Origin: Bacteroidota bacterium
GTDB lineage: Bacteria > Bacteroidota > Ignavibacteria > Kapaibacteriales > UBA961
Length of the DNA stretch: 64,000 bases
Reading direction: 5' to 3'
NCBI GenBank assembly: GCA_020852855.1
Contig: JADZAA010000049.1
Location: forward strand, 67,449 to 131,448
The notes beneath the pieces were generated by a model. It was not told the origin of the DNA, did not search any database, and worked only from the letters and a program-made list of their open reading frames with translations. The position numbers were made by a program, and so were the translations under genes. Position 1 is the first letter of the stretch, and each line of letters begins with the position of its first letter. This document shows positions 31,011 to 50,595 of the stretch, in pieces.

Positions 31011-31094
31011 GGGCAGGTGGCCGAGTGGTTAATGGCAACAGACTGTAAATCTGTCGTGCGACGCACTACGGAGGTTCGAATCCTTCCCTGCCCA
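31011..31094 (+). tRNA. tRNA-Tyr (anticodon GTA), long variable arm
   Basis: The acceptor stem is GGGCAGG/CCTGCCC, the anticodon loop is CTGTAAA, and the T-loop is TTCGAAT. Confidence 0.85.
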
Positions 31095-31107
31095 CAAGAA
31101 TTGGTTT

Positions 31108-31180
31108 GCGGGAGTAACTCAGTTGGTAGAGTCACAGCCTTCCAAGCTGTTGGTCGCGGGTTCGAGTCCCGTCTCCCGCT
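31108..31180 (+). tRNA. tRNA-Gly (anticodon TCC)
   Basis: The acceptor stem is GCGGGAG/CTCCCGC, the anticodon stem is ACAGC/GCTGT, and the loop is CTTCCAA. Confidence 0.85.
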
Positions 31181-31239
31181 CGTGTCCGCGTGAAATGGCC
31201 GCAAAATGTAATCGGCTGTCAGGAGCGTCCGTAATATGT

Positions 31240-31312
<73 letters not shown>

Positions 31313-31351
31313 CTGCCGATTTGGTTCGTTGACGCTAAGAGTTTTTACGTT

Positions 31352-31424
<73 letters not shown>

Positions 31425-31434
31425 CGCCTTATTT

Positions 31435-31507
31435 ACGGGTGTAGCTCAATTGGTAGAGTAGCGGTCTCCAAAACCGTTGGTTGGGGGTTCGAGTCCCTCC
31501 TCCCGTG
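31435..31507 (+). tRNA. tRNA-Trp (anticodon CCA)
   Basis: The anticodon stem is GCGGT/ACCGT with loop CTCCAAA, and the T-loop is TTCGAGT. The acceptor stem has one T-T mismatch, so the ends are approximate. Confidence 0.7.
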
Positions 31508-31556
31508 CAATTTTCAAAGTTTCGGGTAAGTCGTTAAATTACAGCCGTAGACGAAT

Positions 31557-31785: not shown

Positions 31786-32343
31786 ATGGAAGAAACAGCC
31801 GCTAAAATAGAACTGAAATGGTACGCTATCCGCACTTATCCCGGTCATGAGCAGCGCGTTAAAAGTGCTGTCGAGTTGGAAGTGAAGCGATATCATTTGG
31901 AAAGTCGGGTAGGCGATATACTTATACCGCAGGAAACGGTGTACGAAGTGCGCAACGGCAAGCGTCGTACACGGGTAAAGAATTTCCTGCCCGGTTATTT
32001 GCTTATTCAGGTAGCATTGGACAAACAATTAAAAGAGCGCATAGCGTCGTTGCCCTCCATAGTCGGTTTTGTAGGAACGAAGAACGAAGCCGTGGCATTG
32101 CAAGCCGACGAAGTAGCGCGTATCTTAGGGCGAGTTGAAGAGCGGAAAAATATTGCAACTATCGAGATCAGTTTTTCGATAGGCGATCCAATAAAAGTTA
32201 TTGACGGGCCTTTCGCTAATTTCAGCGGTACGGTAAAAGAAGTTAATAACGAAAAGCAAAAGTTGAAAGTCGAGGTTGGAATTTTAGGGCGTAAAACACC
32301 TGTCGAATTGGATTTTGCGCAAGTGGAAATCGAAAACCATTAG
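31786..32343 (+). CDS. nusG: Transcription termination/antitermination factor NusG
   Basis: The NGN domain (WYAIRTYPGHEQRV) is followed by a C-terminal KOW domain (GDPIKVIDGPFANFSGTVKEV). Confidence 0.9.
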   Translation: MEETAAKIELKWYAIRTYPGHEQRVKSAVELEVKRYHLESRVGDILIPQETVYEVRNGKRRTRVKNFLPGYLLIQVALDKQLKERIASLPSIVGFVGTKNEAVALQADEVARILGRVEERKNIATIEISFSIGDPIKVIDGPFANFSGTVKEVNNEKQKLKVEVGILGRKTPVELDFAQVEIENH

Positions 32344-43379: not shown

Positions 43380-43403
43380 GCGTATAGCGTATTCTATTTT
43401 TTC

Positions 43404-43446
43404 AAAAGCCGAAGCGTGAAAATTTACACTTCGGCTTTTGTCGTTT
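43404..43446 (+). terminator. Rho-independent terminator of the rpoBC operon
   Basis: The hairpin AAAAGCCGAAG-...-CTTCGGCTTTT is followed by GTCGTTTTTAC. Confidence 0.65.
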
Positions 43447-43700
43447 TTACTGATAACTTATAATAGGTCTATATAAATTATCTCTTGAATCCAACAGTCA
43501 AGTGCAACGGTATAGATAAAAAAAATAGGATTAGGTGCCATAGGGCAATAACCAAATCGCTAATTATCACAAACCGGAGCACATAATGTCTCGGAGTTGT
43601 AAGCACCTAACTAACCCAAGAGTAAAGATACGAATATCGAGCTATTCCTATGCAAGATAAATCATATTGTAATATAGGGACAATACTTTGAATGTCGCCT

Positions 43701-43794
43701 ATGAGGTAATAAAAAGATTAAACAACAGACCGCGAAAAATGCTGAATGTTAAAACGCCAAGTCAAGTATTCTCAACATTTTTTTACTCTGTTGC
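43701..43794. repeat. Direct repeat copy A (~93 bp), flanking islet 2
   Basis: ATGAGGTAATaaaAAGAttAAACAAcaGACCGCGAAAaaTGCTGAATGTTAAAACGCCAAGTCAAGTATTcTCAACaTTTTTTTAcTCTGTTGC. It is about 88-90% identical to copy B at 46365-46457. Confidence 0.7.
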
Positions 43795-43887
43795 GGTTGA
43801 ATGTTGAAATCGCCTAATCGAAGAACTTCCGTTGAGTTTTGTACGTAACCCAACATTATGCAAAACAGATGTTAGCAGCAGGGGTTG

Positions 43888-46146
43888 TCAGTCAAAAAAT
43901 GTTGCTTGTCCTCCTCGTTTTAGTCGCCAACTGTCCTGTCCAACACGTTCTGCAATATCTTCAAGCACATTTAAAACCGTTTGGCTTTCGGGTGTTGTTC
44001 CATTTTTTAGTAACGGCAAAATTTCTAAAATTATTTGGTCAAAATGTGGCGATTTGTTCTCTCGTTCCATTCTTCGTAAATAACTAATCAAATAGTATTT
44101 TATACGCAGACGAACATCAACATGTGTTCTAAATTTTTTATCTTTTTTTATTGTAAACACCTCTGTCGTTTCATCGTAGTCGAAGTTGTCAAGCAAAATT
44201 GGCGTTAGATCAGTATATTCTTTTTTGAGTAAGTCAAGAAATCCTAGTTCCAAACCTTTTATAATAAGTTCGTCATTGATTTGTTCCAATGTTGCACCGT
44301 CGTTTTTGGCGATAATTCCTTCAATAGTCTGCATCACAATTTCGGCAATGTCCATTCCGAGATTTGCCTTCAAAATAGCCTTCGGATTGCGCACTTTTCG
44401 GAAATTAATAATCAGTTGTCCGCTCAAAACCGTAAACGGATTTTGTCGTTTTTTGAAACTTGTCTGTCCGTTTTTTTGTGGAACTGCACCGATGTATTCA
44501 AAACCGCAACTTTCTGCTGTGTCAATGATTAAATGCCAAAACTCAGGATCTTTGTGTGCAAAAACAAACGATAACCAACGGTCGTATTTTAGTACACGAT
44601 ACATTTCCTTAATACTTTGTGCAATAAGTTCGTTGTATTCGTCTTTGCTCTTTTTTTGTTCGCCTCCTTCAATGGCTTCTTGTTTGTAATCGTCTTCGGT
44701 TACTTCCAAATCAAGCCAAGCGTTCCACATTGCTGACAAATCTAAATACGGAATTTTCTTTCCGTAAGGCGGGTCGGTGTAAATGTAATCTACACTTTCT
44801 TTGGGCAAAAAACTTAAATCGGTAGCCGAACCTTTTATGATTTGTGCGTTTGAAATGGTTTTGTCGTTGATGAAATATTCAATTTCTTTTTTCGCTTCTA
44901 AAACTTTTTTATAGCGAAGTTCAAAACATTGTGTAACGGCAATATCTGTTGGGTCAGGTGCAAGTCTATAACGATAATATCGGAAAGCTGCAGCATCACC
45001 TCCAAAACCTGTGTTTGCTTCAACTGCCTTACTAATGTGATAAGTTAAATTAACTCGTGTAATAACTCCTGAAAAAGCTAACAACAAAGAATTTTTTATA
45101 TTTTCATTTTTCTCTTTCAAAATGATTGATTTTAGTAATGACAGTTCCGCTAATTGTTTATCGCTAAAAAGTTGGTCAACGGTTTCAACATCAGAACCTT
45201 TTGGCAATAGTAATGGTTTTGGTTGAGGATATTTTTTAATTGCTTTTTTTATTTCGGATTCTGTTTTGGGTTCGTGTTTTATGTATTCTTCTTTTACACG
45301 ATTAAACGCATTTTTCAATTCATTTTGGGTAATTGGTGCGATAAGCGACTTAACTAAAAAAACAGCCATTGGGTTGATGTCAATATTTATTCCTTTTCTG
45401 CCACTCATTATTGCTTCAATAACGGTTACACCGCTACCACCAAAAGGGTCAAGCACTAAATCACCCGGTTTACTGAAATTTTTAATGTATTCTTGAACAA
45501 CATTCCACGTTTGTTTAGTGAAATATCCGTGAACTCCAAAATGTCTTTTAGCTGCACGTTTTTTCACTTCAATTTCTTCAAGCAGTGGTCGTGTTGCGTA
45601 GTCAAAACCTGTTGGTTTTGCTGTTGCATTTGTGGTGTCATAAGTTAGTGTTTTACCAACTTGAAAACTGCTTGGCGAAAGGAATAATTTTATATCTTCC
45701 CAATGATGTTCAATTTCGTCAATTTGAAAAAATAAAATAGGTTTTTCAGTATCGTTCGTTCTAAAAACAGAAAATTCTAAACCATTGCAAAGAGCAAAAT
45801 AATTACTTCTGATTTCTGGGTGTGTGGCGTAGCAATACACTTGTTCCACATTGTCGTCATTGATAATTTTTTGGTTAGGTGCTTTTGCATCTAAAACCCA
45901 AGCAAAATTATTTTCAACTTTTAGAGCATAGTCGGGAATAAGGTTTATAGGTCGTTTTTTACTGCCTGTTTTGAGAAAAGGGTGTTGCAGTGTTTTACTA
46001 CGAACAATGTTTTCTTGGGAATAACCAAGTTCTTTAAGAATTGGAAGTATGATTACTTCTCTAACGCTGTCTTCCTTGAAGTCAGGGTTTTGAGTTAGTG
46101 TCCGAAAATCTAAATTTCCGAAAAGTTGTTGTCTTGTTACCGCCAT
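43888..46146 (-). CDS. Fusion of an HsdR-N-like PD-(D/E)xK nuclease domain to an N6/N4 DNA methyltransferase (candidate single-chain restriction-modification/defence enzyme)
   Basis: 752 aa. The N-terminal ~140 aa (ILPILKELGY...PDYALKVENNFAWVLDAKAPNQKI...QVYCYATHPEIRSNYFALCNGLEFSVF) match the HsdR-N/Mrr-like nuclease fold with a PD...LDAK core. The MTase has FxGxG motif I (LVLDPFGGSGVTVIEA) at about aa 229 and motif IV (YIYTDPPYGKK) at about aa 455, with about 200 aa between them (alpha-like order). A ~190-aa C-terminal tail follows. The gene is low-GC. Confidence 0.6.
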   Translation of the reverse strand: MAVTRQQLFGNLDFRTLTQNPDFKEDSVREVIILPILKELGYSQENIVRSKTLQHPFLKTGSKKRPINLIPDYALKVENNFAWVLDAKAPNQKIINDDNVEQVYCYATHPEIRSNYFALCNGLEFSVFRTNDTEKPILFFQIDEIEHHWEDIKLFLSPSSFQVGKTLTYDTTNATAKPTGFDYATRPLLEEIEVKKRAAKRHFGVHGYFTKQTWNVVQEYIKNFSKPGDLVLDPFGGSGVTVIEAIMSGRKGINIDINPMAVFLVKSLIAPITQNELKNAFNRVKEEYIKHEPKTESEIKKAIKKYPQPKPLLLPKGSDVETVDQLFSDKQLAELSLLKSIILKEKNENIKNSLLLAFSGVITRVNLTYHISKAVEANTGFGGDAAAFRYYRYRLAPDPTDIAVTQCFELRYKKVLEAKKEIEYFINDKTISNAQIIKGSATDLSFLPKESVDYIYTDPPYGKKIPYLDLSAMWNAWLDLEVTEDDYKQEAIEGGEQKKSKDEYNELIAQSIKEMYRVLKYDRWLSFVFAHKDPEFWHLIIDTAESCGFEYIGAVPQKNGQTSFKKRQNPFTVLSGQLIINFRKVRNPKAILKANLGMDIAEIVMQTIEGIIAKNDGATLEQINDELIIKGLELGFLDLLKKEYTDLTPILLDNFDYDETTEVFTIKKDKKFRTHVDVRLRIKYYLISYLRRMERENKSPHFDQIILEILPLLKNGTTPESQTVLNVLEDIAERVGQDSWRLKRGGQATFFD

Positions 46147-46364
46147 TTATTTCTCCGTTTAGAGCTACAAAGTTATACAGTTAATAGCGACATTTTTATT
46201 TATTGGTGTGCCGTTGTTCCGTTAACCTTGCCGCCCTACTTACTTATAAGCGAAACTTTACTTAATTTTATATGTTCAATATAGTAAAAAAATAAAAATC
46301 ATCAAACGGATTTTTAATTTTTTTAATTTTTTTAGCGAAGAAAATCTAAAATATGAGGATATAG

Positions 46365-46457
46365 ATGAGGTAATGAGAAGATGAAACAAACGACCGCGAA
46401 ATGTGCTGAATGTTAAAACGCCAAGTCAAGTATTTTCAACCTTTTTTATTCTGTTGC
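46365..46457. repeat. Direct repeat copy B (~93 bp), flanking islet 2
   Basis: ATGAGGTAATgagAAGAtgAAACAAacGACCGCGAAAtgTGCTGAATGTTAAAACGCCAAGTCAAGTATTtTCAACcTTTTTTAtTCTGTTGC. It contains the hairpin AAGTCAAGT...ACTTGACTT. Confidence 0.7.
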
Positions 46458-46478
46458 ACTTGACTTTTGATTTAGATA

Positions 46479-48911
46479 TTAAAAAACTAATACGGGAATA
46501 TTCAAATGTTGCTCTGCCAGACGAATTGTAATAATATATAAACCCTTCGGAATATCTTCACAATTCCATTCTATGTAACCGCCGTTTCTGCTCTGCTGAA
46601 TTATGCGTGTTGTTTGGTCTACATTCGGAACGTCCGAACCGGAAATACTGCGAATATTGATTGTTGCATCGGAAATATTATACTTCGGCTCACAGGAAAC
46701 ATCGCAACGAATAAATCCGTGTGCAGGCATAGGATATGGCTCGCTTTTCCATAGCCATGCGGGATGCTCAACTGCGTTATGCTGCACACCCACAGGCGAT
46801 TGCAATACCGATATTTTTACAATATTTGTTAAATAATCTATTGGTTTCGGTACCGCGTAAACTTGCTTGCTTATAAGCATTATTGCCGTTGTGTCTGCGG
46901 TTGATTGTACGTTGAAAATTGTACTTTGGTCTTCGTTATTCCACTTTGAAAAAATATTCTCGGCTTTTATCGAGTCCCACTTCGTGTCACTATCTTTTAT
47001 ATTTTCTGCCGAATACAATGTATTTTCTTCTGTTATAAAGCATAGCCTATTGTTAAGAATAAACGATGTTTTTATTGGTGCATCAATATATACAGAGTCA
47101 AATTTACGGGTAAGATAATCGTAACGATATAATAAGTGATTATTTGTGGGGATAATAATATTTTGTCCGACTATTTTCAATTCCGGTAAAACAGGATTGT
47201 CATAGTAATATTTATCGGTGGCAATTGCATAACGAAGTGGTTGCGTAATTGGGAGAGTAATGCTATCCCATGTTTTACCGTAATCGGTTGAGCGTAACAA
47301 TGCATAACTATACGAATAATCGGGTGCGTAACCGTCGCTGTCTGCAGTAGGCTTCCCGGCAGTTCGTAGCCCTAAGGTCAAGATTGACTCATCGGGCATT
47401 GTTGTCATGCTAATAGCATTGTCAAAAGGTAAGCGTACAGAATCAAGTAACTGCAAATTTTCATTGTAAAGTAATAGCAGGTTCAGCGGTGTGAATGATG
47501 GCTTACGTGTAAAAATAGCGTAACGTTCTCCTGTTTTTATTCCGTTCTTATATAGAGAGCCGCCGAGCATCAAAGAATCGTAGCCATACGATTTATATGT
47601 GTACCCATTGTCAGATGTCGCAAACACATTGGCATCAGGCACAATATTAGTATCAAATACAATATATCCTTTTTCTTTGTCTGTAAGGAAATAATTGCGC
47701 GGATTCGCTGACTTGTTACCCTTGAAAGTATGTGTATAAGTCTGAGGTAACCATGTTGCGCCGCCGTCTGTTGTTCTGAAAAACGAGAATGTGTTAAATA
47801 GGAACATTGTATTTGCATTACGACATATAAAATTACTTGGCGATGCATTGGAATATTTTATACAAGATAAAAAATTCCACGTTTTACCGGAATCATACGA
47901 CATTGCGATGCACTTATCTTTACCTACTGCAATTATAGTATCGGGAGTTAGTGCAAGTATCTCTTGAAAATAAAATGAATACCTTGACATCGATAATTGC
48001 AGCTTCGCCGAGTCAAGCGGATTAATAACAGTTATATATGAAGTATCGGCAGAATAATGTGATGTATCAGCCTTTATATAATCAATAGCCAACAAATCAT
48101 TTGCTTCATCAGGTATATATTGGCTTTTCGGCCGTATATAGTATCTCTCGTTATTTACAATATGACTGCACGAACCATTGTACACCGCACCGGGGAAAAA
48201 TGTTTCCCAAGTTTCTCCTTTATTAAATGTTTGTAAAATTTTATCGTAGCTGTAGGTTGTGTAGTCGTTACTTACCGTGAATGTTAATGTACCTTCATTA
48301 TTACGTAAGCCGTGTATTATATTCGGATAGGCTTTGTTTGCGGGTGGTATGTGTGCTGCTACATAGACAGTGTCGAAAGATAACTTGCTTGCATTGTATC
48401 GAATTAAAAGTGTGTCATTACAAGTAATCCAGGTACCTGTTTCATCTATATGTATTTCACCGTAGTTCAAGTTGCTGTCGAGCGTCAGAAATTGTTTAAT
48501 CGTTTGGTCATTTTTTACGGAAAGTACATTTGACTTTGTAAGAATATATGTAGAATCTCCGTAAATTGTTATATCTATAATATCAGGTGTTGTAGATACA
48601 TCAACAATGTCCCAAAAAGCACCATTTTTCTGTGAAAATATCAACGAATAATCGGTAACTCCAATAAATTCGTTACCTGTGGCAAATATACGCTTTATCG
48701 AATGTTTATCCCCTAAGGATATTTGACTCCACGTTGCACCGAAATCGGTAGAACGGGTAATTATGCCATAATCTCCGTAGCAAAGTACGGCCGAGCCGTT
48801 GAAAGCAATACCCCGATAGTCGGTTATCAAACGCTCGGTTCTAAACGTTACTTCTTGTGCCCACAGAGGTATAGCAAGCAGGAACACGATTAATATGTAA
48901 ACTGTTTTCAT
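46479..48911 (-). CDS. BNR/Asp-box repeat beta-propeller protein (sortilin/GH74/Ycf48-like) with a probable T9SS C-terminal sorting domain
   Basis: The signal peptide MKTVYILIVFLLAIPLWAQ starts at the ATG at 48911; the ORF-track start at 49022 is probably too far upstream. Five SxDxGxTW-type motifs are present (STDFGATW, TFNKGETW, SYDSGKTW, TTDGGATW, STDYGKTW). The C-terminus is ...PKGLYIITIRLAEQHLNIPVLVF. The gene is low-GC. Confidence 0.6.
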   Translation of the reverse strand: MKTVYILIVFLLAIPLWAQEVTFRTERLITDYRGIAFNGSAVLCYGDYGIITRSTDFGATWSQISLGDKHSIKRIFATGNEFIGVTDYSLIFSQKNGAFWDIVDVSTTPDIIDITIYGDSTYILTKSNVLSVKNDQTIKQFLTLDSNLNYGEIHIDETGTWITCNDTLLIRYNASKLSFDTVYVAAHIPPANKAYPNIIHGLRNNEGTLTFTVSNDYTTYSYDKILQTFNKGETWETFFPGAVYNGSCSHIVNNERYYIRPKSQYIPDEANDLLAIDYIKADTSHYSADTSYITVINPLDSAKLQLSMSRYSFYFQEILALTPDTIIAVGKDKCIAMSYDSGKTWNFLSCIKYSNASPSNFICRNANTMFLFNTFSFFRTTDGGATWLPQTYTHTFKGNKSANPRNYFLTDKEKGYIVFDTNIVPDANVFATSDNGYTYKSYGYDSLMLGGSLYKNGIKTGERYAIFTRKPSFTPLNLLLLYNENLQLLDSVRLPFDNAISMTTMPDESILTLGLRTAGKPTADSDGYAPDYSYSYALLRSTDYGKTWDSITLPITQPLRYAIATDKYYYDNPVLPELKIVGQNIIIPTNNHLLYRYDYLTRKFDSVYIDAPIKTSFILNNRLCFITEENTLYSAENIKDSDTKWDSIKAENIFSKWNNEDQSTIFNVQSTADTTAIMLISKQVYAVPKPIDYLTNIVKISVLQSPVGVQHNAVEHPAWLWKSEPYPMPAHGFIRCDVSCEPKYNISDATINIRSISGSDVPNVDQTTRIIQQSRNGGYIEWNCEDIPKGLYIITIRLAEQHLNIPVLVF

Positions 48912-49012
48912 AAAATTATTTCTGTAAAAGAGTAAAATATGGTGCAGATAATAGATTTGCGATTTACGCCGCCTAACATTTGACTTCACAGATTCGGAAA
49001 GATGTTTTATTA

Positions 49013-49666
49013 TTATGGGCAATCCATTTCTTTATAACACTCGCTATTTTGTAGCCAACCCGTAAAATGAACTGATGGTTCACCAGGTTCCGATGGCCAC
49101 GGGGAATTTCGATTGCAGGTATATTCTATTCTTTGATAATTAGGATCCGGGCTATTGGGGCATTTAATAATGTCCAATGTTTGCTCATCTCGACAAACTT
49201 GCCAAGTTACAATGCAATAATCGCCATTAATGCATGGAGTTTTCCAGTTTTTATAATGATATGATAAATCAGGATTCTGCCAACCGAATGTCGACCATTG
49301 ATAGCATATAGGAAATTCTAAAGTTAGTATCCGGCAACCGGTTGAGCATGGCGGTATGTCACAAAATAACGCATAATGTGGCATGAACTGCGAGCGTAAC
49401 CAAGTTTCGTCGGGTGTCCAATTAGGGCATGGAGAGCGCGGATTTGCGGGTTTTATATCCATAACTTTTACGTTAGCCGGATCTGCACCGCTGATGCCGC
49501 ATTTGTAGCAGAACTCTATTATCCAAGAACAGCCGTTCGGGTCGGGACCAAAAGTTAGTGTCGTAGAATTCCAACCCGGAAGACATTGAGCATTTACTGA
49601 TATTGTTTCGAATATGCAACCCATAAAAATGAGCATTAAAGTAAAGAATGAAAGAAGTAAATTCAT
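49013..49666 (-). CDS. Cysteine-rich secreted protein, paralog A (217 aa, ~16 Cys in the mature part)
   Basis: A signal peptide is followed by AQC...GCSWIIEFCYKCG...CDIPPCSTGC...DYCIVTWQVC.... The Cys spacing is shared with paralog B at 52281-52898. Confidence 0.55.
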   Translation of the reverse strand: MNLLLSFFTLMLIFMGCIFETISVNAQCLPGWNSTTLTFGPDPNGCSWIIEFCYKCGISGADPANVKVMDIKPANPRSPCPNWTPDETWLRSQFMPHYALFCDIPPCSTGCRILTLEFPICYQWSTFGWQNPDLSYHYKNWKTPCINGDYCIVTWQVCRDEQTLDIIKCPNSPDPNYQRIEYTCNRNSPWPSEPGEPSVHFTGWLQNSECYKEMDCP

Positions 49667-49842
49667 TTTGGTACCCTGAAAATGAAAGAATAGATTAAAA
49701 TCCAGCGCAAATTATACATATTTATTGTTATTGTAAAATATATTTTTTGCGTGATAAAGCATAATAACAAAACAAACCGCATTACTACGGCTTATTTGAT
49801 ATTTGCCCCTATTTTACGGGTATTCTTTCTGTATAGTATCTA

Positions 49843-50595
49843 TCAGAAAACTGGTACTATAAAGGATACGACAGACGACGGCTTGCCGATTTGCCTATAT
49901 AATGGCAGGTGCGTTTCGGGATCTTTTACTGTACCTCCGTCGGGAATAGTATTCAGTGGCGAAAGCGGATATGCGATTGCATATAGCCGTTGATATTGCC
50001 GGAAGTCTTGGGCAATGAGCGTCGGGCCGCTGATTATAAGAACAGATCGCAACGAATCAGTGAATATGAGTTTATCGGTAACGTAGAGATATCTGCCCGG
50101 CTCGCACGAAACGGTTGCAGCGGTATCAAGAAACAACAATGCTTGCACTTTTGGAAAAAAAGCCGTGGGAATCGAAGAAATTGTTGCTTCGCATCGCACA
50201 GATCCTTGCGATGTGTCCGAAATAACGATAAATTCCGTCAATTGAGCCGGCTCCTGCACTAAGGTTATCGGCGGAATATGCACAGTGCCGTTACCTGCGA
50301 ATACATAGTCAATAATTTCGGCACTGCAATAGTTGTCTTTCGAGAAAACAATGCGGTGTAGTCCGGGAGGAACATTATTTAATATCCACGAGCCGTCTGC
50401 AGCCGACAGCGTTTCAACTCCCGCCGCTGAAATTTTAACGCCGGCTCTATCCGCCACAAATGGCGCGTCCTCACGGACAAGATAGACGATACCTTTCAAA
50501 ACGCCGGGCGCAGTAGCCGTTGCATTTGGGCCGGGCTCGCCCTCGCAACCCGAAAGAATTGCTGCCAATATTATTAAAATTATAATCACTTTCAT
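49843..50595 (-). CDS. Lipoprotein with carboxypeptidase-regulatory-like (CarbopepD_reg/transthyretin-like) domain, paralog 3
   Basis: The lipobox ILSGCEGEPG has acidic residues after the Cys. The domain reads GVLKGIVYLV...DGSWILNNVPPGLHRIVFSKDNY. Confidence 0.6.
   Translation of the reverse strand: MKVIIILIILAAILSGCEGEPGPNATATAPGVLKGIVYLVREDAPFVADRAGVKISAAGVETLSAADGSWILNNVPPGLHRIVFSKDNYCSAEIIDYVFAGNGTVHIPPITLVQEPAQLTEFIVISDTSQGSVRCEATISSIPTAFFPKVQALLFLDTAATVSCEPGRYLYVTDKLIFTDSLRSVLIISGPTLIAQDFRQYQRLYAIAYPLSPLNTIPDGGTVKDPETHLPLYRQIGKPSSVVSFIVPVF

Follow-up and report, generated by a model that had tools for sequence, protein, structure and literature searches.

The window, the whole stretch of 64,000 nucleotides analyzed here, carries a gene that fuses a restriction-type nuclease to a DNA methyltransferase. 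It is flanked by rpoB and rpoC and, on the opposite side, by genes for a BNR/T9SS protein and CarboxypepD_reg proteins. A preliminary description of this DNA had reported a 752-aa open reading frame on the minus strand; it is present at 43888..46146, and the nuclease and methylase motifs quoted at the time are legible in its translation. Two NCBI records, GAB1430477.1 and MCC6845587.1, contain exactly the same protein, under a name that derives from its HsdR-type nuclease domain. No methylase, specificity, helicase or ATPase gene was found near the fusion gene among the open reading frames of the window and the neighbours checked, as the preliminary description had also claimed.

43403..43449, plus strand: rpoC intrinsic terminator, a hairpin with 18-nt arms followed by a T-run, 24 nt past the rpoC stop
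43492..43808, plus strand: putative miniature, internally deleted IS30-family element, recognized from inverted and direct repeats, alignment and frame translations
43888..46146, minus strand: nuclease-methyltransferase fusion gene, 752 aa, ATG start, a candidate for Type IIG-like restriction-modification
46147..46324, minus strand: upstream non-coding part of the transferred cassette, from matches to contigs L027 and L028
46365..46471, plus strand: second, partial IS30-like right end: 3' end of a transposase with disrupted frame, plus the right inverted repeat

Flanking repeats and arrival of the gene

The rpoC terminator, detected as an inverted repeat, forms the left edge of the core region and folds as RNA at -21.9 kcal/mol (z = -6.2, with none of 200 shuffles as good). 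In the left IS30-like element, which follows, a left inverted repeat (43492-43519) and a right one stand on either side of the last ~35 codons of a transposase; the inverted repeats are 28 nt long with 82% complementarity. The remnant transposase ends in ..YEVIKRLNNRPRKMLNVKTPSQVFSTFFYSVAVEC, with the stop at 43805-43807, and the peptide resembles, at weak E-values of 0.01-0.5, the C-terminal ends of plasmid-borne proteins annotated as IS30-family transposases. Neither an intact transposase nor a Pfam match was found in the flanking repeats. Both IS30-like copies have the same orientation and share a direct repeat of 83 nt at 89% identity, or of 107 nt when extended with one indel. A 30-nt core of this repeat occurs exactly twice in the window vs zero expected occurrences, and short-read contigs of the same species end within the repeats. 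The limits first given for this islet (43447-46478) coincide with the two remnants, which had gone unmentioned.

The two decayed IS30-like ends bracket a cassette of about 43870-46324, between the rpoC terminator and the BNR/T9SS gene. A contig with 96.4% identity (L027) matches 43972-46324 of the window and another with 82% identity (L028) matches 43870-46234. Promoters of the Bacteroidetes type have a -7 box TAnnTTTG. The sequence TAACTTTG at 46168-46175 on the minus strand, 21 nt upstream of the ATG, fits this box and is presumably part of a putative promoter.

The GC content of the fusion gene is 0.354 vs 0.448 for the window. The low GC described earlier thus stands for the gene itself but is not limited to the islet, and runs on through the following genes to about 50000. 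Every relative fetched that retains sequence downstream of rpoC lacks the fusion gene there. The nearest available relatives, with rpoC about 80% identical, have a wholly different block after rpoC, and the data searched therefore contain no exact empty site; the expectation that the insertion could easily be dated by synteny was not borne out. The fusion gene is horizontally acquired, as seen from its low GC, the IS remnants on both flanks and its absence after rpoC in relatives. It probably arrived through IS-mediated capture or insertion.

Domains of the fusion protein

The protein is ordered as PD-(D/E)xK nuclease, flexible linker, DNA methyltransferase and helical tail. All parts are encoded on the minus strand:

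45667..46089, minus strand: PD-(D/E)xK nuclease domain of the HsdR-N / BpuSI / MmeI-N kind, residues 20-160
45511..45666, minus strand: variable, low-confidence linker between nuclease and methylase, residues 161-212
45337..45510, minus strand: methylase N-lobe, residues 213-270, with strand 1 and motif I (VLDPFGGSGVT) and strand 2 (INIDINP)
44857..45336, minus strand: mostly helical insert between Rossmann strands 2 and 3, presumed target-recognition domain, residues 271-430
44881..45051, minus strand: fast-evolving segment, presumed specificity determinants, residues 366-422
44347..44856, minus strand: methylase C-lobe with motif IV (TDPPYG), residues 431-600, the most conserved part of the protein
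43891..44346, minus strand: helical tail, apparently two helix bundles that each end in a beta-hairpin, residues 601-752

Residues 20-160 are a PD-(D/E)xK endonuclease domain that shares ancestry with the heads of type I HsdR, BpuSI and MmeI. The motifs are readable in the translation (LIPDYALKV...WVLDAKAP...EQVYCYA...CNGLEF, residues 69-125), and the signature residues are E25, P71-D72, D86-A-K88 and Q102xxxY106. Across 27 N-domains with identity down to 28%, E25, R29, D72, Y73, A87, K88, Q102, Y106 and N121 are invariant, and position 86 is D or E in 17 aligned relatives. In a Pfam search with the whole protein, HSDR_N_2 scored no more than 18.3 bits, under the cut-off of 25; the isolated N-domain reached 22.1 bits (E 1.7e-4). 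N-domains of diverse relatives match HSDR_N (20/27), HSDR_N_2 (14/27) and, weakly, MmeI_N (2/27, best E 0.0033). An N-domain profile searched against PDB found the nuclease domain of RM.BpuSI (3s1s) first, at E=1e-4, then McrC at E=1e-3, with both alignments spanning D...(D/E)xK...Q..Y. The HsdR-N-type domain originally read from the motifs is upheld by this conserved signature and these matches.

The nuclease has an alpha-beta-beta-beta-alpha-beta core at pLDDT ~80 in the AF2 full-length model. A model of the nuclease on its own is poor (pLDDT 48.7), and the fold therefore rests on the full-length model and the profile matches. The dN/dS ratio is lowest in the methylase (0.03), 0.04-0.05 in the tail and 0.06 in the nuclease, whose catalytic signature is not only intact but under strong purifying selection. 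The linker is the least conserved stretch of the protein, with AF2 pLDDT below 50 at residues 162-179 and 197-212.

Residues 213-600 carry FGG and DPPY motifs and make up an amino-methyltransferase, with a helical domain lodged between its Rossmann strands 2 and 3. Motif I (LDPFGGSGVT, residues 232-241) comes first and motif IV (TDPPYG, residues 457-462) about 225 aa later, in the order described initially with a spacing of about 200 aa. The N-lobe (AF2 pLDDT 85-92) includes a Pfam PF01555 stretch at 200-261 and aligns with the CcrM, RsrI and PvuII methylases; the DPPY region aligns with CcrM. The PF01555 check proposed earlier returned N6_N4_Mtase at E=1.3e-16 over two stretches, above the family cut-off. 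Since the motif I region falls on the C-terminal end of the beta-class profile, the motif order is permuted relative to it. In 75 species motifs I and IV do not vary, and blocks 451-475 and 526-575 share 94-95% of their residues with the window protein. PglXI is the best match of the methylase core in the defence database PADLOC (E=4e-41, residues 323-584), and Type II methylase models match the protein at 1e-37. The NCBIfam model NF042963 for anti-phage-associated DUF1156 methylases scored 29.7 bits, below its curated equivalog cut-off of 1000.

JGI annotations as '16S rRNA G966 N2-methylase RsmD' and some structural neighbours suggest another substrate, namely that the protein is an RNA (tRNA/rRNA) N2-guanine methyltransferase with an accessory nuclease-fold domain. 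The matches to Pfam UPF0020 and Cons_hypoth95 that would fit this are weak, while those to DNA methylases (PF01555 at 1e-16 as well as PglXI and the Type II models) are far stronger. The protein has no THUMP or other RNA-binding domain, its methylase is fused to a restriction-type nuclease, and its distribution is patchy and horizontally transferred; we regard an RNA substrate as extremely unlikely.

The position of the insert was read from the AF2 secondary structure, and the PglXI match starts inside it, at residue 323. Sequence comparison maps the fast-evolving part of the protein to a pair of loops in this nested domain, at about 371-382 and 397-410, flanking a conserved YYRYR core. In 418 pairs with near-identical backbones, mismatch density is 0.45-0.56 in residues 366-422 vs 0.00-0.05 in the methylase core, and dN is 0.25 in this segment vs 0.02-0.04 elsewhere. 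One pair from Microcystis (L072/L073) is 92% identical overall and 52% identical at residues 351-400. The presumed specificity modules of 188 sequences fall into 26 clusters (r=0.33 against the backbone), and some single MAGs carry two diverged copies that differ mainly at residues 251-450. Variation at residues ~366-422 between close homologues is as expected for specificity loops. The TRD-like insert proposed between motifs I and IV is present and is the part of the protein that evolves fast.

Past the methylase core, the tail is about 150 aa long (residues 601-752) and not about 190 aa as first estimated. In the AF2 model (pLDDT 55-80) it looks winged-helix-like and presumably contributes extra DNA-binding domains, a reading that leans on the C-terminal HTH array of BrxXI (PMC12839542).

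Spread of the family and proposed function

The protein belongs to a large, uncharacterised family across many bacterial phyla, with relatives encoded in 233 of 185,579 species representatives. The best 80 of these 233 are 66-95% identical and match nearly all 752 aa except where a contig end truncates them. This level of conservation across phyla exceeds what is usual for restriction enzymes of differing specificity and counts against a restriction-modification reading. The 80 loci come from Bacteroidota, Ignavibacteria, Chlorobi, Cyanobacteria, Nitrospirae, Acidobacteria, Planctomycetes, Spirochaetes, Endomicrobia, Dehalococcoidia and Proteobacteria, and no conserved neighbour was found within 4 kb of the gene in any of them. 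Since the full-length architecture of about 750 aa recurs in 233 species representatives, the protein is not an HsdR fragment; the full length of the best 80 loci and their lack of a shared neighbour contradict the idea of a piece of a disrupted type I/III system. In four named genomes the gene is placed among housekeeping genes, and the GC of the gene in its hosts is 0.34-0.38 vs 0.35-0.43 in the flanks. A sister group without the N-terminal head has an uncharacterised C-terminal domain of ~190 aa with invariant D, E and E. No family member with demonstrated activity (recognition sequence, cleavage data or methylome link) was found in the literature searched. On sequence grounds, members of this family are most likely one-protein restriction-modification enzymes.

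One alternative is an orphan regulatory or protective DNA methyltransferase whose non-cutting nuclease-fold head would serve for DNA binding, tethering or sensing. The gene is solitary, has housekeeping surroundings in several genomes and shows the high conservation typical of conserved orphan methylases; BREX helicases use inactive REase-fold domains as sensors (PMC12839542). Inactive REase domains, however, lose their catalytic residues, whereas here E25, D72, K88, Q102 and Y106 are invariant, position 86 stays D/E in aligned relatives and nuclease dN/dS is low. These features also disfavour the option, raised in the preliminary description, that the head is used only for DNA recognition. 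The patchy rather than clade-wide spread and the fast-evolving specificity segment, which would be unexpected for a regulatory methylase with a fixed target, likewise make an orphan methylase unlikely.

The gene could also be primarily a selfish, homing-like cassette. Its site-specific nuclease would cleave empty alleles that lack the modification, or competing DNA; recombinational repair and post-segregational killing would spread the cassette, with defence as a by-product. A lone gene with ~90-180 bp of its own upstream DNA has moved between hosts, with up to 96% nucleotide identity across contigs binned to different lineages, although binning of 2-kb contigs is unreliable. The family is found in many phyla without linked mobility genes and is nearly missing from viral contigs (3 loci in 2.9 million). 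The insertion site, however, differs in each genome examined and the flanks have no common sequence, so nothing points to a homing site. The selfish reading overlaps the restriction-modification mechanism rather than replacing it, and as an explanation of its own we consider it quite improbable.

The product of the fusion gene is probably a restriction-modification enzyme of the Type IIG kind that is complete in a single polypeptide and combines its modules in an unusual way. The nested domain, probably aided by the winged-helix-like tail, would read a short DNA sequence, and the methylase would add an N6-methyl group to an adenine in that sequence on host DNA with AdoMet as donor. The tethered nuclease would cut unmethylated incoming DNA some distance from the site, and for a double-strand break the enzyme would probably have to act as a pair of molecules or at a pair of sites, as BpuSI, MmeI and DrdV do. 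A single chain would both protect and attack, so that one gene could operate wherever it landed, and such self-sufficiency fits the presence of a lone cassette in many phyla.

A more tentative idea, possible though doubtful, is that the protein is the first example of a separate and very widespread class of one-gene restriction-modification systems. This class would combine an HsdR-type nuclease with a BrxXI-like methylase, have two-loop specificity and nuclease swapping in the sister group, and spread between phyla as a bare gene and promoter without mobility genes. If true, such a one-gene class could be rationally re-targetable, as MmeI was.

Comparison with known systems

Type IIG enzymes have an N-terminal nuclease followed by a methylase and then DNA-recognition parts in a single chain. 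They cleave sequence-specifically at or near their site, usually with stimulation by AdoMet, and their own methylation protects the host. The window protein has both an endonuclease (20-160) and a methylase (213-600) with intact motifs, an agreement at the domain level only, and no conserved partner gene across the 80 loci. Like BpuSI, DrdV and the MmeI family, it has one chain with an N-terminal nuclease of the HsdR-N kind, an amino-methyltransferase and recognition parts. A Foldseek search with the full model found BpuSI (3s1s) first over 652 columns and also DrdV (7lo5) over 722-739 columns, both collinear; the low TM-scores of 0.12-0.16 suggest that these matches reflect a common domain order and not a common rigid shape. 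The plan had been described as outside the textbook types; its order is that of Type IIG, and what is unusual is the methylase module.

MmeI itself is laid out as an MmeI_N nuclease, a helical spacer, a gamma-class MmeI_Mtase, then MmeI_TRD and MmeI_C. Unlike in Type IIG and MmeI, the methylase here is not a gamma-class N6_Mtase/Eco57I/MmeI_Mtase module with a C-terminal TRD: Pfam N6_Mtase, Eco57I, MmeI_Mtase, MmeI_TRD and MmeI_C had no match to the window protein at E<=1. Its motifs are instead of the PF01555 type; strands 2 and 3 enclose the presumed recognition domain, and the tail looks winged-helix-like. The joint to the nuclease is a disordered linker of ~50 aa, in contrast to the helical connector of Type IIG. 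Membership of the MmeI family (Type IIL) was rejected, as MmeI_N was also without a match to the protein at that threshold.

The nuclease is homologous to that of HsdR, with the same D...(D/E)xK...QxxxY signature (HSDR_N / HSDR_N_2). The protein was rejected as a Type I HsdR: it has no helicase/ATPase or SF2 translocase domain, and neither the window nor the 80 loci contain hsdM or hsdS. In common with the beta-class methylases M.RsrI, M.PvuII, M.MboIIA and CcrM (PF01555), the motif I and motif IV regions align; the order is I then IV here and IV then I in the beta class, a circular permutation that places the two matching stretches at opposite ends of the PF01555 profile. Unlike these methylases, the window protein has an added nuclease and tail.

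Homology of the methylase core to PglXI/BrxXI is clear. Like BrxXI, the protein has a big insert between Rossmann strands 2 and 3, taken as a nested TRD, and helical DNA-binding-like domains after the methylase core (PMC12839542). The BrxXI insert is ~250 aa with a 4-Cys zinc finger and is accompanied by three C-terminal HTH domains (PMC12839542); here the insert is ~160 aa with a single Cys in 271-430, the tail is ~150 aa and a nuclease is fused. BrxXI is without a nuclease domain and operates in a six-gene BREX locus.

These likenesses, with the best PADLOC match and the weak DUF1156 match, raise the possibility that the protein is a component of a BREX type 3 or DUF499-associated multi-gene defence whose ATPase, helicase and PglZ partners are elsewhere or lost. 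BREX, DUF499 and other conserved genes are, however, absent within 4 kb in the 80 loci and from the window, a nuclease effector is already built into the family, the DUF1156 match scores far below its cut-off and the zinc finger reported to mark the BrxXI insert is missing. A multi-gene system is thus very unlikely. Two memberships were rejected: that of a BREX type 3 locus (brxC, pglZ, brxHII), with rpoC and BNR/T9SS as neighbours and no recurrent neighbour in the 80 loci, and that of the DUF1156 (COG1743) anti-phage methylases, on the NF042963 score.

All gold-standard Type IIG methylases of REBASE are class A in a 2025 classification (bioRxiv 10.1101/2023.12.13.571470). The methylase module of the window protein is closer to that of BREX type 3 PglXI/BrxXI than to the gamma-class modules found in characterised Type IIG enzymes, and its class is one not yet seen in nuclease-methylase fusion enzymes.

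The gene behind rpoC and its flanks

The gene is a single low-GC open reading frame placed between the rpoC stop with its terminator and a BNR-repeat gene, in the stretch described earlier as "Islet 2" (43447-46478).

Features of the region behind rpoC
43379: rpoC stop, with a terminator hairpin downstream
43403-43440: rpoC terminator hairpin, -21.9 kcal/mol, z = -6.2 by RNA folding
43492-43519: inverted repeat of 28 nt, pairing with ends of the flanking repeat
43701-43808 and 46365-46471: direct repeat of 107 nt, an extended alignment with one indel
43888-46146, minus strand: nuclease-methyltransferase ORF, 752 aa
46479-49022: BNR-repeat gene, 847 aa, with a weak, sub-threshold match to a T9SS C-terminal sorting domain

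All motifs quoted in the preliminary description were found in the 752-aa translation, while the tail, estimated there at ~190 aa, is nearer 150 aa beyond the methylase core. The exact protein has been deposited as 'hypothetical protein [Ignavibacteria bacterium]' and again as 'type I restriction enzyme HsdR N-terminal domain-containing protein [Bacteroidota...]'.

GC content of the gene is 0.354 versus 0.448 for the window. Since the low-GC zone extends past the islet to about 50000, the islet is not delimited by composition alone. GC is 0.35-0.41 over 46479-50000, which spans the BNR gene and a Cys- and Trp-rich 217-aa ORF (49013-49666) without a Pfam match; variability behind rpoC may therefore reach beyond "Islet 2". 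Scanning the islet for Rfam families and tRNAs gave no matches. A cluster of five tRNA genes (Tyr, Gly, Gly, Thr, Trp; 31011-31508) lies upstream of the rpoBC operon and of a 185-aa ORF (31786-32343) that is nusG by position in the L013 annotation. No tuf-sized ORF (>150 aa) was found between tRNA-Thr and tRNA-Trp in this cluster.

The islet limits match a flanking direct repeat that the preliminary description did not mention. Its ungapped 83-nt core is 89% identical between the copies, and a 30-nt core occurs exactly twice in the window versus 0 expected. Translation of the left copy ends in YEVIKRLNNRPRKMLNVKTPSQVFSTFFYSVAVEC followed by a stop, and this peptide matches the C-termini of annotated IS30-family transposases, with weak E-values. 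Because of this peptide and the inverted-repeat pairing, we interpret the left element as an internally deleted IS of ~317 bp and the right element as a solo right end in the same orientation. Contigs assembled from short reads of this species (L016-L020, L024-L026) end ~390 bp past rpoC and to either side of the methylase gene, within the IS30-like repeats, which suggests further copies elsewhere in the genome or community.

The DNA in common with close homologues from other bins starts at 43870/43972 and ends at 46234/46324; it comprises the ORF and 90-180 bp upstream of it and is closely enclosed by the IS remnants. This upstream DNA includes TAACTTTG, 21 nt before the ATG, which we take to be a candidate Bacteroidetes-type -7 box. 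Conserved cassette ends or a homing site were considered and rejected: the flanks in five genomes compared have nothing in common beyond the ORF ends, and the 90-180 bp are common to very close homologues only. A 2387-bp contig binned as Chitinophagales (L027, JAIXLB010000087.1) shares 96.4% DNA identity with window positions 43972-46324, whereas the window protein is labelled Ignavibacteria or Bacteroidota; either the transfer is very recent or a short contig was binned wrongly.

All same-species assemblies carry the cassette, and exact-protein look-ups of rpoC led only to this species, with the gene order unchanged. When the rpoC C-terminus was used to scan metagenomes, 19 relatives (L107-L125) were obtained at about 80% identity, in which the 5-7 kb downstream of rpoC are conserved among themselves. 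No part of the 64-kb window matches this block by tblastx, suggesting that the window lineage underwent a rearrangement at the 3' boundary of rpoC. Acquisition of the cassette is supported by these sequence comparisons, since the rpoC relatives have a different downstream block. No exact empty site was found in the same-species assemblies or among the metagenome rpoC relatives. The insertion, expected to be easy to date from relatives, cannot be dated in this way, as the nearest ones carry the different block.

Nuclease head, methylase and variable segment

The whole-protein Pfam score for HSDR_N_2 is 18.3 bits, below the 25-bit cut-off, and the nuclease domain was therefore tested through relatives. 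A search of 1.84 billion representative sequences gave 7405 relatives, including 444 with E<1e-30. Nine residues (E25, R29, D72, Y73, A87, K88, Q102, Y106 and N121) are invariant in 27 N-domains with identities down to 28%, and residue 86 is D or E in 17 aligned relatives. The resulting signature, E...PD...(D/E)xK...QxxxY, is that of HsdR-type nucleases. Pfam matches among these N-domains were to HSDR_N (20/27, best 3.4e-8), HSDR_N_2 (14/27) and MmeI_N (2/27). The best solved proteins for the N-domain profile were the RM.BpuSI nuclease domain (3s1s, E=1e-4) and McrC (E=1e-3), both alignments passing through the catalytic motif. A separate AlphaFold model of residues 1-200, built with 18 close fragments, reached a pLDDT of 48.7, too poor for a fold search, which was replaced by the profile searches. 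The full-length model (pLDDT 75 overall, about 80 in the nuclease domain) shows the expected alpha-beta-beta-beta-alpha-beta core, and dN/dS in the nuclease domain is 0.06, similar to 0.03 in the methylase. Based on the signature, profile matches, modelled core and dN/dS, the head is very probably a working nuclease and not a relic.

Three shorter proteins (P0217, 517 aa; P0240, 438 aa; P0261, 264 aa) have the same nuclease N-domain, about 60% identical, joined to unrelated C-terminal regions without Pfam matches. Judging from these combinations, the head behaves as a mobile module.

Methylase motifs, in residues of the 752-aa protein
232-241: motif I, ahead of motif IV
457-462: motif IV, after motif I

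Two PF01555 stretches match opposite ends of the beta-class profile, so that the motifs stand in a permuted order compared with RsrI, PvuII and CcrM. In the AlphaFold model, an insert (about 271-430) lies between Rossmann strands 2 and 3 and is mostly helical. Among defence-database entries, the one matching the methylase best is PglXI, from BREX type 3 (E=4e-41). According to a 2026 analysis (PMC12839542), PglXI/BrxXI has a nested TRD between strands 2 and 3 and C-terminal HTH domains; the BrxXI insert carries a 4-Cys zinc finger, unlike the window protein. The tail (601-752) is predicted to form two helix bundles, each with a hairpin at its end, from which we infer winged-helix-like DNA binding.

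No hypervariable region is seen when averaging over 75 species. In pairs with near-identical backbones, mismatch density is 0.56 at residues 371-380 and 0.30-0.45 at 401-420, versus 0.00-0.05 in the core. A pair of Microcystis homologues is 52% identical at residues 351-400 versus 92% overall, and two copies in one Prevotellaceae MAG are 44-58% identical at 251-400 versus 98-100% at 500-700. Such localised variation would be expected of specificity determinants. The variable segment forms 26 clusters among 188 sequences, and its correlation with the backbone is poor (r=0.33). Both dN (0.25) and dS (1.3) are raised in it, which suggests segment exchange.

Two diverged copies per MAG were observed in Prevotellaceae Gx485_bin89 (L055/L074) and Marinilabiliaceae Th196P3bin71 (L070/L079). 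The former, the sole pair compared, differs mainly in the nested insert, a pattern consistent with two specificities in one host.

Spread of the family

Scanning one genome per species identified 233 relatives, the best 80 of which are 66-95% identical and essentially full length where the contig allows. Hosts of these 80 include Bacteroidota, Ignavibacteria, Chlorobi, several cyanobacterial genera, Nitrospirae, Acidobacteria, Planctomycetes, Spirochaetes, Endomicrobia, Dehalococcoidia and proteobacterial lineages. Clustering of all ORFs within 4 kb of the 80 loci revealed no recurrent neighbour, the largest cluster being generic ABC ATPases at 6 loci. In four named genomes the gene sits amid housekeeping genes, in a different place each time. 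Cultured carriers include Anabaenopsis elenkinii CCIBt3563, Microcystis sp. BLCC-F210, Algoriphagus boseongensis CECT 8446 and Flavobacterium yafengii (accessions WP_282715688.1 and WP_190371868.1 among them). Of 2.9 million viral contigs scanned, just 3 encode the protein. Full-length homologues, 53-69% identical, are present on the viral-classified IMG/VR contigs L126-L128.

A headless sister group of about 760-790 aa (P0138, P0140, P0144, P0146, P0150, P0155 and others) lacks the N-terminal nuclease and has the same methylase and tail followed by an extra ~190-aa C-terminal domain. This domain has invariant H, E, D, E-x-E and R residues (motif ...QIDxIW...YAFEVExST...ERF) and may be an alternative nuclease module; it is not recognisable as a nuclease, having no Pfam or PDB sequence match.

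Significance and comparison with known systems

The gene is genuine and intact, forms a unit by itself and was acquired horizontally, and its family is large and already in databases under uninformative names. Most likely it encodes a Type IIG-like RM enzyme in which a BrxXI-like methylase is combined with a nested recognition domain based on loops. If active, the family would extend Type IIG beyond the gamma-class methylase scaffold and would connect the BREX type 3 methylase, which is poorly understood, with a simple system of one protein open to study on its own. The family would also offer a large natural set of near-identical backbones differing mainly in two loops, attractive for reading and re-engineering DNA specificity, and could yield new tools for restriction and methylation. 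Always a lone gene, with 66-95% identity in hosts as far apart as Bacteroidota, Cyanobacteria, Spirochaetes and Dehalococcoidia, it offers a clean case for studying RM gene movement that does not rely on dedicated mobility functions. Names such as 'type I restriction enzyme HsdR N-terminal domain-containing protein', 'DNA methyltransferase' and 'RsmD' mask a probable transformation barrier in many environmental and bloom-forming bacteria.

We found no characterised family member in the literature searched. The fusion protein does not belong to the MmeI family, HsdR, BREX type 3 or the DUF1156 equivalog. Nor is it a fragment of a larger type I/III system, an alternative raised in the preliminary description, as the architecture recurs at full length and without hsdM/S, mod/res or helicase genes. 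That description placed the architecture outside the textbook RM types. Foldseek aligned the whole model to PDB entries of two Type IIG enzymes, BpuSI first (652 columns) and also DrdV (7lo5, 722-739 columns), and the predicted plan is therefore, contrary to that placement, the one of Type IIG; TM-scores are low because the domains are differently arranged in space. Gamma-class, Eco57I and MmeI models do not match the window protein, and it is in the methylase that it differs from Type IIG enzymes, whose gold-standard methylases in REBASE are all reported by a recent classification to be of one class, with a gamma-class scaffold (bioRxiv 10.1101/2023.12.13.571470).
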